From Escherichia coli (GTDB lineage: Bacteria > Pseudomonadota > Gammaproteobacteria > Enterobacterales > Enterobacteriaceae): a stretch of 64,000 nucleotides of DNA. A program made the translations under genes and the position numbers. The stretch lies in NCBI RefSeq assembly GCF_003334815.1, contig NZ_QOWO01000015.1. The stretch is one strand, 5' to 3'. Under the pieces are notes generated by a model, which ran no database searches, was not told the DNA's origin, and worked only from the letters and a program-made list of their open reading frames with translations. Below are positions 2,422 to 27,982 of this stretch, in pieces. Numbering within the stretch: position 1 is the stretch's first letter; every line of letters starts with the position of its first letter.

Positions 2422-3399
<978 letters not shown>

Positions 3400-3453
3400 T
3401 AAAGCATCAGGATTCCTGCTATCCTTGGCGGGAATTGAATACAGGAGAGAGTT

Positions 3454-4191
3454 ATGTATCCCGTCGACCTTCATATGCATACCGTTGCCAGCACACATGC
3501 ATATAGCACATTAAGTGATTACATTGCCCAGGCCAAACAAAAGGGCATTAAACTTTTTGCGATCACCGATCATGGCCCGGATATGGAAGATGCGCCGCAT
3601 CACTGGCACTTCATTAACATGCGTATCTGGCCGCGAGTGGTTGATGGGGTAGGGATCCTGCGCGGCATCGAAGCTAACATTAAAAATGTTGATGGTGAAA
3701 TTGACTGCAGCGGTAAAATGTTTGACTCGCTGGATCTAATTATTGCCGGTTTTCATGAGCCGGTTTTTGCGCCACATGACAAAGCGACCAATACACAAGC
3801 GATGATCGCCACTATCGCCAGCGGCAATGTGCATATAATAAGCCATCCCGGAAATCCCAAATATGAAATAGATGTGAAAGCCGTTGCTGAAGCAGCCGCG
3901 AAACATCAGGTGGCGCTGGAAATCAATAATTCCTCATTTTTACACTCACGTAAGGGCAGTGAAGACAACTGTCGTGAGGTAGCCGCAGCGGTACGTGATG
4001 CTGGAGGTTGGGTGGCATTAGGCTCGGATTCTCACACCGCGTTTACCATGGGGGAATTTGAAGAGTGTCTTAAAATCCTCGACGCGGTAGATTTTCCGCC
4101 AGAGCGCATTTTGAATGTTTCTCCGCGCCGCTTACTGAACTTCCTTGAATCTCGCGGTATGGCACCGATTGCGGAATTTGCAGACCTTTAA
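3454..4191 (+). CDS. ycdX: PHP-family zinc phosphatase YcdX, 245 aa
   Basis: Translation [20 protein letters not shown]... with PHP-domain His motifs. Confidence 0.9.
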
Positions 4192-23881: not shown

Positions 23882-24022
23882 CTAAAAATAAAACACATAG
23901 ATCAGATCCATAATTGCCAACAATCCCCAGAGAAAAAGATAAAGCATCAGATGCTCGCGAATATTATTGATGAGATAGTGCAACAGCCGACGCATTAAAT
24001 ACTCCTGTAAAAACGGCCTCAT
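23882..24022 (-). CDS. yceO: Small hydrophobic protein YceO, 46 aa (below the ORF-track size cut-off)
   Basis: Manual translation of the minus strand: [46 protein letters not shown]. Confidence 0.7.
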
Positions 24023-24042
24023 TCTGGAGGCCGTAATGATGA

Positions 24043-25161
24043 TTATTGGAAGCGGGAAAGCCTGAATGGCGTCAAATCAAAATCGCTTTTTTTGTCTTGC
24101 GCAAAATCGGCAGCTATTTCCCCTAAAACTGACGCAAATTTAAAACCGTGCCCACTCAGGCCGGTAATGAGCAGTGTATTATCGTGGCCGGGTAGGGTAT
24201 CGATAATAAAATCTTCGTCAGGCGAATTATCATAGGTGCAGGCAGCGCCGTACAGGCAGCAACCGATACCCGGCAATACATTGCGCAAGAACGGGAAGGC
24301 TTCTGACCCATCACTGGCCACTTCCGCAAACGGAACACGTTCATCCGCTGAATGGATAACCTGGCCTCCGTTATGTTTGCCAATCTTCAACGCGTCGTTT
24401 TCTGCCGGAAAACCATAATATTGATCGCCATTGGGCAGTTCACCGGTAAACGCCGGGAATTTATTCTTCACGCTATAGCGGCCATCGGCCTGATACCAGG
24501 CAAATACTTTGCGTACGGGCTGGACAGGCAGCTCCGGGAGCAGGTCTTTTACCCATGTTCCCGCGCAGACAATCGCTTTTTTCGCCTGATGCTCACCGTC
24601 AGCCGTTTCAATAGTTACGCCATCATCGTCATGACGAATTGCGGTGACCGGGCAGTTGAACAGTTGCGCACAGCCCGCTTCCTTCGCCAGTTGGATCCAG
24701 GTTTTAATCGCCAGTTCGCTGCGCAAAAAACCGGAATCAGTTTCAAATAAGCCGATGTAGTTGTCCGGGACGCGTATTTCCGGCCAGCGGGCCATAATCC
24801 CTTGCGCATCGAGCTTTTCAACGTTGAGTTGCCATTGTTCGGCGCTGTGGGCGACGTTGGCGAGAAATGTGGAATCAGCCGGGCCAAGGTTAATGACGCC
24901 AGAGCGTACAAAAATGGGATCTTCTTCGTTGTGGCGGGAGAGTTCATCCCACAGCGTTTGCGCGCGGAGGACCAGCGGGACATACTTTTCGCCTTCACCA
25001 TAAGCATGGCGAATTAATCGCGTATCGCCGTGGTGGCTGCCGTGTTGATGCGGTGGCATATGGGCGTCGGTCATTAGCACGTTTAAACCGGCGCGGGTTG
25101 CATAATACCCGGCGGCAGCGCCTACGGAACCGCTGCCAATAATGATGAGATCGTATTTCAT
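24043..25161 (-). CDS. solA: N-methyl-L-tryptophan oxidase SolA (FAD-dependent), 372 aa
   Basis: Translation [25 protein letters not shown]... (FAD-binding GxGxxG). Confidence 0.95.
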
Positions 25162-25275
25162 TTTTTTCTCTCTGCTCTCATGGTTTAAGCAGAGTAATTA
25201 ACTGAATGCAGATATACAACCCAGAAATGGTAAAGGCACCGGTGAGGTGCCTTTTGGGTGGATGGTCATGTCATG

Positions 25276-25530
25276 TTAATGACGCCGATACTCGTTTACC
25301 TGGAAATCACCGGATTCAATTTTGGCGATTCCTGCTTCTAATATCGAAATAAATTGTCTGGCAACATCAGTGGTTAACCAGAGCGTCTGACCAACTTCAG
25401 TCCCTTCCTGCTCGGACTTATTTGGGGTCTGGTAGTGCAAACGCAACATCAGCGCATCATAGCTATCAACGGTGCTGATGTCCCACCCTACGAGCGGATG
25501 AGTCTGAATGACTTCATTATTTTTTTCCAT
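25276..25530 (-). CDS. bssS: Biofilm regulator BssS (YceP), 84 aa
   Basis: Translation MEKNNEVIQTHPLVGWDISTVDSYDALMLRLHYQTPNK... Confidence 0.9.
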   Translation of the reverse strand: MEKNNEVIQTHPLVGWDISTVDSYDALMLRLHYQTPNKSEQEGTEVGQTLWLTTDVARQFISILEAGIAKIESGDFQVNEYRRH

Positions 25531-25817
25531 CATGGCCCCCTAATTCGTGTTACTAGACAACGTTATTCGAGGTTCAATGCGTTTTTATCTGAAGCAACTT
25601 CAGTATACCAATAAGTAAGGGTATTCACCGAATTTTTAAAGGGGGAAACAGATAAATTTCTGCTTTTAAGATTTATATGAACAATAAAACAGCATGTCAT
25701 TCATATTTTTTTAGCATATTGTGCAATTATTTTGAGGAAGTGTAGAAATTTTGTACTCAAAATTCGTAAGTAAAATAAAAAAGCCGGGGCGACCCGGCAA
25801 AAAAAAATCACTGCATA

Positions 25818-26063
25818 TTATTCGCTGACAAACCAGTCATCGGCGCTTTCCCACGTTTCCTGGAGAATTTCACTAATGCGCTGTTTATCTTCTTTTGTCG
25901 CGCCAATAACCGATAAATTATTCGCTGCGGCATAACGTACCGATACGTGGCCTTCATTATCAGGAAACGCATACTGAATACGGCGGGAAAGTTCGCCAGC
26001 CAGGGCGTCAATAGCCCCAGCTGGCAATGGAGAAGTTTTCGCTATGGTGACTTCAATTCGCAT
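25818..26063 (-). CDS. dinI: DNA damage-inducible protein DinI, 81 aa
   Basis: ORF 25818-26195; ATG at 26061-26063 gives MRIEVTIAKTSPLPAGAIDALAGELSRRIQYAFP...; LexA box just upstream. Confidence 0.93.
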   Translation of the reverse strand: MRIEVTIAKTSPLPAGAIDALAGELSRRIQYAFPDNEGHVSVRYAAANNLSVIGATKEDKQRISEILQETWESADDWFVSE

Positions 26064-26082
26064 AATAGCCCCCTGTTGAATA

Positions 26083-26102
26083 TACTGGTTATTTATACAG
26101 GT
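26083..26102 (-). promoter_or_regulatory. LexA (SOS) box upstream of dinI
   Basis: Minus strand reads ACCTGTATAAATAACCAGTA (CTGT-N8-ACAG palindrome). Confidence 0.85.
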
Positions 26103-26136
26103 AAAATAACCTAATGACAACAGGAAGCTACGATTT

Positions 26137-27183
26137 TTATTGTTTAACGGACCAGCGTACCGTTTCCCCGGCGAGGAATGGCACCAGCGTGTCATCAGTC
26201 AGTGCGATGCTTTCAGCAACCTGTTGCTCTTCACGTACCAGTTCGATGAATGTGTCGTTGACCGGCAACCCATAGAACTGCGGGCCGTTTACAGAACAGA
26301 ATGCTTCAAAGTGCTGCAAAGCATTCATTTCTTCAAAGACGGTAGCGTAACTGCCCAGCGCGGTTGGGGCGTTGAAGCAGCCCGCGCAGCCGCAACTGCT
26401 CTCTTTGCGATGACGTGCATGTGGCGCAGAATCCGTACCGAGGAATACTCGATTAAAACCGCTGGCGACCAGTTCACGCAATGCCTGTTGGTGAATATTA
26501 CGTTTGAGGATGGGTAGACAATACAGGTGCGGACGCACGCCTCCAACCAGCATATGGTTGCGGTTAAACATCAGATGCTGCGGAGTGATGGTGGCAGCCA
26601 GCCGTTCATTTCCGTCACGGACATAGTCGGCAGCATCTTTGGTGGTGATGTGCTCAAAAACGACTTTCAGCGCAGTCAGGCGCTGGCGCAGAGGTTCCAT
26701 CACGCTTTCTATAAAGCGCGCTTCACGATCAAAAATGTCGATATCTGCATGTGTCACTTCACCATGCACCAGTAGCGGCATACCGATTTTTTCCATGCGC
26801 TCAAGTACCGGCATGATTGCGTCAATTGACGTCACGCCGTGGCTGGAGTTAGTGGTTGCGTTTGCCGGGTAAAGTTTTGCAGCGGTGAACACGCCTTCGT
26901 TAAATCCGCGCTCCAGCTCATTAGGATCCAGCGAATCTGTTAAATAACAGGTCATCAATGGGGTGAAATCGTGCCCGGCAGGTACGGCGTCAAGAATACG
27001 CTGGCGATACGCCACGGCAGCCTCAACGGTGGTCACGGGCGGAGCCAGATTGGGCATTACGATAGCCCGTCCATAAATTTCGCTGGTATATGGCACGACA
27101 GTTTTTAACATGTCGCCATCGCGGAGGTGAAGGTGCCAGTCGTCTGGGCGGCGGATCTTTAATACCTGGGATGGTGCAGTCAT
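26137..27183 (-). CDS. pyrC: Dihydroorotase PyrC, 348 aa
   Basis: Translation [27 protein letters not shown]... (metal-binding HxH). Confidence 0.97.
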
Positions 27184-27234
27184 TAATCTCTATGCTCCGG
27201 CTGAAGGGATGTTTTTGCCGGACACAAAGGATAA

Positions 27235-27250
27235 GCGGAAACGTTTTCCT
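27235..27250 (-). promoter_or_regulatory. PurR operator in the pyrC leader
   Basis: gcggaaacgttttcct, matching the PurR box palindrome (AAACGTTT core). Confidence 0.7.
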
Positions 27251-27288
27251 TTGCACGAAAAATAAAGGGCGCGAATGCGCCCTCGTGA

Positions 27289-27849
27289 TTAATCAGTAAA
27301 TGGAATGACAATTTCGCCTGGCTTCACTTCAATGCCTTTCGCCAGTTTTTTCGCCATTGCTTCGCCCTGGCTGCCATCTTCGCGCAGGACGTAAGCAGGT
27401 TGCTGGTTAAAGTAATTGCGTAATGCCTGGTTCAAATAGGGAAGCAACGTTTGCATCACCGTTTGCATTTTTTCCGGTTGTACCGTCGCATCGACCACTT
27501 CCATCTCTTTCAGGAAGATCGCACCTTTTTCTTTATCAAACACGGGCAGCGCTTTCAGCTTCAGTTTCATGGTCGCTTTCTGACTACCGAACAGGGAGTT
27601 CATGTCCAGATTGGCGTCTCCGGTTAGGGTAACCTTATTCGGCTCTTCGCGACCAATTTGGCTGGTCAGGTTTGTCAGAACAATATGGGCGTCAGCCACG
27701 CCGGGTAAACCGATATCTTTTGAGAAATTATTATGTTTCGCAAGCGACTGGTTAATTTCTTGTTCGGTGATGGTGTATTGGGTGAGTTGATTACAGCCAA
27801 CGAGCAGGCCACTGACGATCAATGCAGCGGCAAATAAAAACTTGTTCAT
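27289..27849 (-). CDS. yceB: Lipoprotein YceB (DUF1439), 186 aa
   Basis: ORF 27289-28050; ATG at 27847-27849 gives MNKFLFAAALIVSGLLVGC... lipobox. Confidence 0.85.
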   Translation of the reverse strand: MNKFLFAAALIVSGLLVGCNQLTQYTITEQEINQSLAKHNNFSKDIGLPGVADAHIVLTNLTSQIGREEPNKVTLTGDANLDMNSLFGSQKATMKLKLKALPVFDKEKGAIFLKEMEVVDATVQPEKMQTVMQTLLPYLNQALRNYFNQQPAYVLREDGSQGEAMAKKLAKGIEVKPGEIVIPFTD

Positions 27850-27982
27850 GGTAGTCCTCGACATGAAATCTGCGTCAATATCCTGACACAACGCAGCATG
27901 TGTCACCAGCGATAAACTCGCCAGCAGAAAAAACTGAAAACGGCGGCAACCCGCGAATACAGGCTGCCGCGGCGGGTCAGGA

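Follow-up and report, generated by a model that had tools for sequence, protein, structure and literature searches.

The LexA operator of chromosomal dinI in Escherichia coli and its placement over the dinI promoter

The dinI locus of Escherichia coli raises the question of whether the short, partly palindromic site in front of the gene is a LexA operator and, if so, how it is arranged with respect to the promoter and the transcription start. We analyzed the locus within a stretch of 64,000 nucleotides of E. coli DNA, which is referred to here as the window and in whose numbering all positions are given unless another sequence is named. A first-pass annotation, made from the sequence itself, had placed a LexA operator on the minus strand at 26083-26102. 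We are highly confident that this site serves the chromosomal E. coli dinI gene as its LexA operator and that a LexA dimer bound there covers the -10 element and the start region.

The 1-kb stretch around the box was matched in all 5,426 complete E. coli genomes, where the RefSeq genes are pyrC, dinI, and bssS. Over 410 nt, from the end of pyrC to a point past the dinI terminator, the window is identical to K-12 MG1655 save for one extra T. The operator, the promoter, and the coding sequence are without difference, and the locus differs only in the T-run at 25799-25807 ahead of the terminator hairpin, with T9 here against T8 in MG1655. Because of this identity, the published MG1655 data on dinI apply directly to the window. 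The gene and its surroundings comprise the following features:

25818-26063, minus strand: dinI coding sequence, 81 amino acids plus stop codon, identical to MG1655 b1061.
26069-26074, minus strand: Shine-Dalgarno sequence AGGGGG, separated from the dinI ATG by 5 nt.
25773-25798, minus strand: intrinsic terminator of dinI, GCCGGGTCGCCCCGGC followed by a T-run, found by terminator scan.
26137-27183, minus strand: pyrC, given as context, with its stop codon at 26139-26137.

The gene had been named dinI in the first-pass annotation, and this name is borne out by the RefSeq annotation of the identical DNA as well as by a match of the protein to the NCBIfam equivalog NF007893 (178.2 bits against a cut-off of 111, residues 1-81 of 81). 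DinI homologues carry the Pfam domain PF06183. An Rfam scan of positions 24000-28500 returned the known PyrC leader only and no RNA family at dinI. This leader (RF02372, 27184-27233, minus strand, 68.7 bits) lies directly upstream of pyrC and is a known translational control element.

The site itself is the following feature, which is assigned from its matrix score and from a published match:

26083-26102, minus strand: LexA operator (SOS box) of dinI, ACCTGTATAAATAACCAGTA, read from 26102 to 26083.

Coordinates and strand had thus been given correctly. The gap between the box and the dinI ATG (26063-26061) counts 19 nt (26082-26064), which fits the earlier estimate of about 20 bp. The box had also been described as CTGT-N8-ACAG; here the left arm CTGT holds, whereas the right arm is CCAG and not ACAG. 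The dinI box therefore reads CTGT-N8-CCAG, with the arms CTGT/ACAG and CTGG/CCAG, and 8 of the 18 E. coli LexA sites published in PMC3009722 Table 4 likewise have a CCAG/CTGG arm. It conforms to the 16-bp palindromic core CTG-N10-CAG, whereby CTG occupies box positions 3-5 and CAG positions 16-18.

As a short pattern, the CTGT-N8-ACAG core with at most one mismatch is not enriched in the 64-kb window (16 matches compared to 18.7 expected), and the exact consensus TACTGTATATATATACAGTA with up to three mismatches gave no match in the search. Since the dinI box exceeds three mismatches to this consensus, weight matrix scoring was used instead. The matrix was symmetrised and was derived from 17 published E. 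coli LexA sites (PMC3009722 Table 4), with dinI excluded. In leave-one-out scoring of the known LexA sites, the dinI 20-mer obtained 21.27 bits and ranked 7 of 18, and its heterology index was 4.95, beside a published value of 4.8 (Courcelle 2001, as cited in PMC11228462). Matrix scoring had been proposed as a check along with the original call, and its outcome is high. In a matrix scan the box tops the 64-kb window by about 10 bits, the runner-up scoring 11.10 bits, and 200 random first-order Markov sequences of 64 kb gave a mean maximum of 12.1 bits and a highest value of 19.63 bits. Hence the 20-mer as a whole stands far above chance, whereas the short core pattern alone does not. The sequence, score, and geometry of the box are direct observations on this DNA, and its conservation, described below, was likewise observed directly. 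A second dinI "box" described in Salmonella, 42 nt from the ATG and with a heterology index of 17.6, was also considered and was rejected for E. coli, where the matching stretch has CTG on the left and lacks CAG.

The dinI LexA box is already known and catalogued in lists of the SOS regulon, and the site analyzed here shows no departure from the known system. The primary papers on the E. coli dinI LexA site are reportedly those of Lewis 1994, Yasuda 1996, and Fernandez de Henestrosa 2000. The evidence on LexA dependence in E. coli, on LexA occupancy by ChIP in Klebsiella pneumoniae, and on mapped transcription starts is taken from the literature. The identical 20-mer is listed as the dinI LexA motif of E. 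coli K-12 (PMC3009722 Table 4; also PMC11228462 Table 1), and since the flanks are identical too, it is the same site. In that first study, dinI is among the most UV-induced genes (PMC3009722). AZT induces dinI 49-fold, with a 39-fold dependence on LexA cleavage, which puts it in the top three of the classical SOS genes by induction (PMC11228462); the tight SOS control that had been claimed from the sequence agrees with these values. In K. pneumoniae, LexA occupies the dinI promoter in ChIP experiments and does so less after mitomycin C, and the authors state that the LexA box overlaps the dinI start and cite the E. coli site as already determined (PMC10907235). In Salmonella, the boxes of the chromosomal and the Gifsy prophage dinI genes all lie 19 bp from the ATG, those of the dinI gene group overlap the start, and dinI is induced 22.8-fold.

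The promoter can be described by the following elements:

26115-26120, minus strand: -35 hexamer TTGTCA, 5 of 6 matches to TTGACA, from a hexamer scan.
26092-26097, minus strand: -10 hexamer TATAAA, 5 of 6 matches to TATAAT, at box positions 6-11 and 17 nt from the -35 hexamer.
26083-26087, minus strand: inferred main transcription start, likeliest A 26086 or G 26085, from the -10 geometry and the K. pneumoniae orthologue.
26101, minus strand: transcription start reported for E. coli, with a 38-nt leader (Kim 2012 supplement).

In the minus-strand hexamer scan, the combination of TTGTCA, 17 nt, and TATAAA was the sole strong sigma-70 candidate, with 10 of 12 matches. This pair predicts a start at 26087-26083, and the box covers about -16 to +4 of the promoter so defined. 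A standard promoter scan did not report the dinI promoter, as its -10 pattern must end in T and the hexamer here is TATAAA. Both the -10 hexamer and the inferred start lie inside the box, which is the placement of a LexA operator. It has further been reported that RNA polymerase on its own recognises the spacer between dinI and pyrC in genomic SELEX, and that it can transcribe dinI in vitro. This result fits an activator-independent promoter that is held down by LexA only.

From this arrangement we infer occlusion as the mode of repression. A LexA dimer on CTG-N10-CAG would cover the -10 hexamer TATAAA at box positions 6-11 together with the start region, and by covering a near-consensus sigma-70 promoter it would prevent RNA polymerase from forming the open complex. 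Upon DNA damage, RecA-stimulated self-cleavage of LexA would free the dinI promoter. The freed promoter would then give a transcript of about 310 nt, which is predicted to comprise about 23 nt of leader (no more than 38 nt), a strong Shine-Dalgarno sequence, the 81 codons of dinI, and the intrinsic terminator.

The position of the promoter right behind pyrC suggests a possible second role of the operator. The pyrC stop codon at 26139-26137 lies 14 nt upstream of the dinI -35 hexamer. The terminator scan found no terminator between pyrC and dinI, and the first one downstream of pyrC is the dinI terminator at 25798-25773. Transcripts of pyrC therefore enter the dinI promoter and operator unless Rho or processing ends them. 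LexA bound 35 nt past the pyrC stop codon might thus also block read-through from pyrC and insulate dinI from pyrimidine-regulated transcription, and the order of pyrC and dinI, which is kept across all 80 Enterobacteriaceae loci compared below, speaks in favor of it. However, our literature search on co-transcription of pyrC and dinI found nothing, Rho-dependent termination or RNA processing could end the pyrC mRNA, and roadblocking of elongating polymerase by LexA is not established for the dinI site, so that we regard this additional role as unlikely. Rather unlikely, too, is a double-duty operator in which the block to pyrC read-through insulates basal DinI and the minor start reported at 26101 is possibly a trace of transcription at the edge of the occupied operator.

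The start at 26101 needs to be considered in its own right, as it conflicts with the start inferred from the K. pneumoniae orthologue. It derives from the Kim 2012 supplement, which lists a dinI start at position 1120748 of NC_000913.2, based on 13 reads from cells that were not SOS-induced. Conversion of the coordinates via the MG1655 match shows that this position is window position 26101, which is the second base of the dinI 20-mer, at the upstream margin of the box. Were transcription to begin mainly at 26101, bound LexA would occupy +1 to +19 instead of the -10 element, and the same operator would act mostly downstream of the start, as a roadblock to promoter escape or elongation. The reported start and its 38-nt 5'UTR speak for this arrangement, which we nevertheless judge to be quite improbable: the few reads stem from cells without SOS induction, where repression of the main promoter is to be expected, and the hexamer scan shows no pair of -35 and -10 hexamers with 8 or more of 12 matches that would place a start at 26101, whereas the 10-of-12 pair predicts 26087-26083.

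The orthologue argues in the same direction. In K. pneumoniae, the dinI start has been mapped by dRNA-seq and primer extension to position 1222445, the 3' end of the transcript to 1222098, and the 5' end of the small RNA DinR to 1222253 (PMC10907235). We took Klebsiella-type dinI loci from metagenomes by DNA pattern scan. These loci encode an 83-amino-acid DinI and have the TTGTCA-17 nt-TATAAA promoter and the 19 nt between box and ATG as in E. coli. When the published K. pneumoniae distances are laid on the Klebsiella-type sequence, the start falls on box positions 16-18 with a leader of 22-24 nt. With identical hexamers, spacing, and box-to-ATG geometry, transcription in SOS-induced E. coli would most likely start at A 26086 or G 26085, which leaves about 22-23 nt of leader. 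Like the occlusion by LexA, the exact position of this start is a deduction. Either way, the reported and the inferred start both fall within the dinI box, and the leader is 23-38 nt long. Start mapping had been named as a further check on the original call, and no mapped start lies far upstream, neither the one at 26101 nor the one in K. pneumoniae, 22-24 nt before the ATG. The leader had been called very short; it is short indeed, but "very" does not hold, as its length is in or next to the commonest 5'UTR class of E. coli (25-35 nt).

The preferred reading, that LexA binds over the -10 element and the start region, can be viewed against the conservation of the site. Among species-representative Enterobacteriaceae, all 80 of 80 dinI loci have a LexA box, with scores of 19.6-29.5 bits. 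The distance from box to ATG is 19 nt in 65 of the 80 loci and 18-21 nt in 76, and the remaining four loci have extra DNA inserted between box and Shine-Dalgarno sequence. CTG, the T at position 6, and CAG never vary among the 30 distinct chromosomal boxes, and CTG and CAG are likewise constant in 19 distinct prophage boxes. Positions 6-9 and 11 of the box are invariant among orthologues. In the upstream alignment, the -35 region (CTGTTGT), the box, and the Shine-Dalgarno sequence are conserved to at least 90%, compared to 40-60% for the spacer between -35 and box, and CAGGGGGC, the Shine-Dalgarno region, is kept in at least 90% of the orthologous loci. Invariant arms next to a variable -35-to-box spacer amount to more conservation than a promoter by itself would need, which is the pattern of a LexA operator in orthologous promoters. 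The -35 position itself holds TTGTAA, TTGTCA, or TTGCAA in most of the 80 loci. Within the species, the 65 nt from -35 to ATG are 100% identical in 4,596 of 5,402 matching E. coli genomes.

Prophage homologues of dinI from IMG/VR, which share about 50% protein identity and have unrelated leaders, show the same relation of box to start codon. Of 77 such homologues, 72 carry a box that scores 21.4 bits or more and stops 14-22 nt short of the ATG, most often at 19 nt, and the CTG and CAG arms are invariant in these 72 homologues. Relative to the box, the prophage -35 and -10 elements are displaced upstream by about 7 nt, whereas the box itself is retained, as is its spacing from the ATG. Within about 85 nt upstream of the ATG, the prophage promoter has TTGAAC and, further on, TATACT, which overlaps the box in its left arm. 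The most frequent box among the prophage copies, TACTGTTTATTTATACAGTA, is without TATAAA at positions 6-11.

The conservation of the right arm, which lies outside the -10 element, argues for LexA binding over promoter function alone. A box that is merely the AT-rich -10 region of a strong promoter and resembles a LexA site by chance, with an indirect induction of dinI, could be proposed from the resemblance of the LexA consensus itself to a -10 element and from the ordinary frequency of the short core in the window, but it is effectively excluded and keeps a negligible probability, given that the 20-mer outscores 200 of 200 random controls, that the CAG of the right arm CAG(T/C)(A/G) is invariant in 49 distinct orthologous and prophage versions, that the prophage -10 element shifts while box and ATG distance stay, and that dinI expression depends on LexA cleavage (PMC11228462) with a LexA ChIP signal at the K. 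pneumoniae orthologue (PMC10907235).

One point against the LexA operator as the best explanation is that the Escherichia box is among the weaker orthologous boxes, with 21.3 bits compared to a median of 26.3 bits. This box (ACCTG...CCAG) is weaker than 75 of the 80 orthologous ones. The dinI box of most other genera contains AACTG or TACTG, often together with ACAG.

Several insertions and rearrangements were observed at related loci. In E. coli MLI108K1 (NZ_CP116994.1), the ISL3-family element ISKox3 lies inside the dinI LexA box, at a site that corresponds to window positions 26089-26096. The affected region is positions 2501-3890 of the locus stretch, and the insertion has an 8-bp target duplication, ATAAATAA. 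The -35 and -10 hexamers and the left half-box now point into the IS element, and the right half-box, the Shine-Dalgarno sequence, and dinI are about 1.3 kb away. This insertion is a natural disruption of both operator and promoter. In E. coli JX21CE35, an IS1 copy is located between dinI and bssS (locus positions 570-1267), past the dinI terminator region, and the operator is untouched. Buttiauxella gaviniae and B. brennerae carry a repeat insert in the dinI leader (locus positions 1356-1500). The insert matches a dispersed intergenic repeat with a median of 7 locations in each E. coli genome, at about 80% identity, and is consistent with an ERIC element. At the position of the Buttiauxella insert, two Trabulsiella dinI loci carry about 42 nt of inserted DNA. 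In one Klebsiella-type metagenome contig, a deletion fuses the 3' end of dinI to the bssS region, which gives an 84-amino-acid product with an altered C-terminus and without the DinR 3'UTR.

Apart from E. coli K-12 itself, the closest known system is the dinI/DinR promoter of K. pneumoniae (PMC10907235). It is alike in its hexamers and their 17-nt spacing, in the box at 19 nt from the ATG, in pyrC being located immediately upstream, and in the terminator hairpin that ends the dinI/DinR transcript. It differs in its box, which starts with TACTG and scores 26.8 bits, whereas the E. coli box starts with ACCTG and scores 21.3 bits, and in the length of DinI, which has 83 amino acids there and 81 here. 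Moreover, the K. pneumoniae dinI 3'UTR contains a Klebsiella-specific stretch that makes the DinR small RNA, and this stretch is absent here. The prophage dinI operons of the Gifsy-1, -2, and -3 dinI-gfoA type (PMC8072944, PMC5322425) also place a strong LexA box some 19 nt ahead of the ATG of the dinI-like gene; they differ in the proteins, the leaders, and the upstream shift of the promoter hexamers described above for prophage dinI. The Gifsy phages co-transcribe an antirepressor gene with dinI, whereas here dinI is monocistronic, with a terminator behind it. Further SOS operators of E. coli that lie over the -10 element and the start, such as those of sulA and umuDC, act by the same kind of repression, in which LexA and RNA polymerase compete. 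Boxes of this type are nearer to the consensus than the dinI box, as seen for umuD, which scores 27.6 bits on the same matrix.

As a discovery, the site carries little weight, as it is a textbook case within the E. coli SOS regulon and was read correctly from the raw sequence. The analysis adds the detail that box and ATG stay about 19 nt apart in the Enterobacteriaceae and in the prophage copies despite the shifted promoter hexamers. It also shows that the Escherichia operator is among the weakest of its orthologues, and yet dinI is among the most strongly induced genes.
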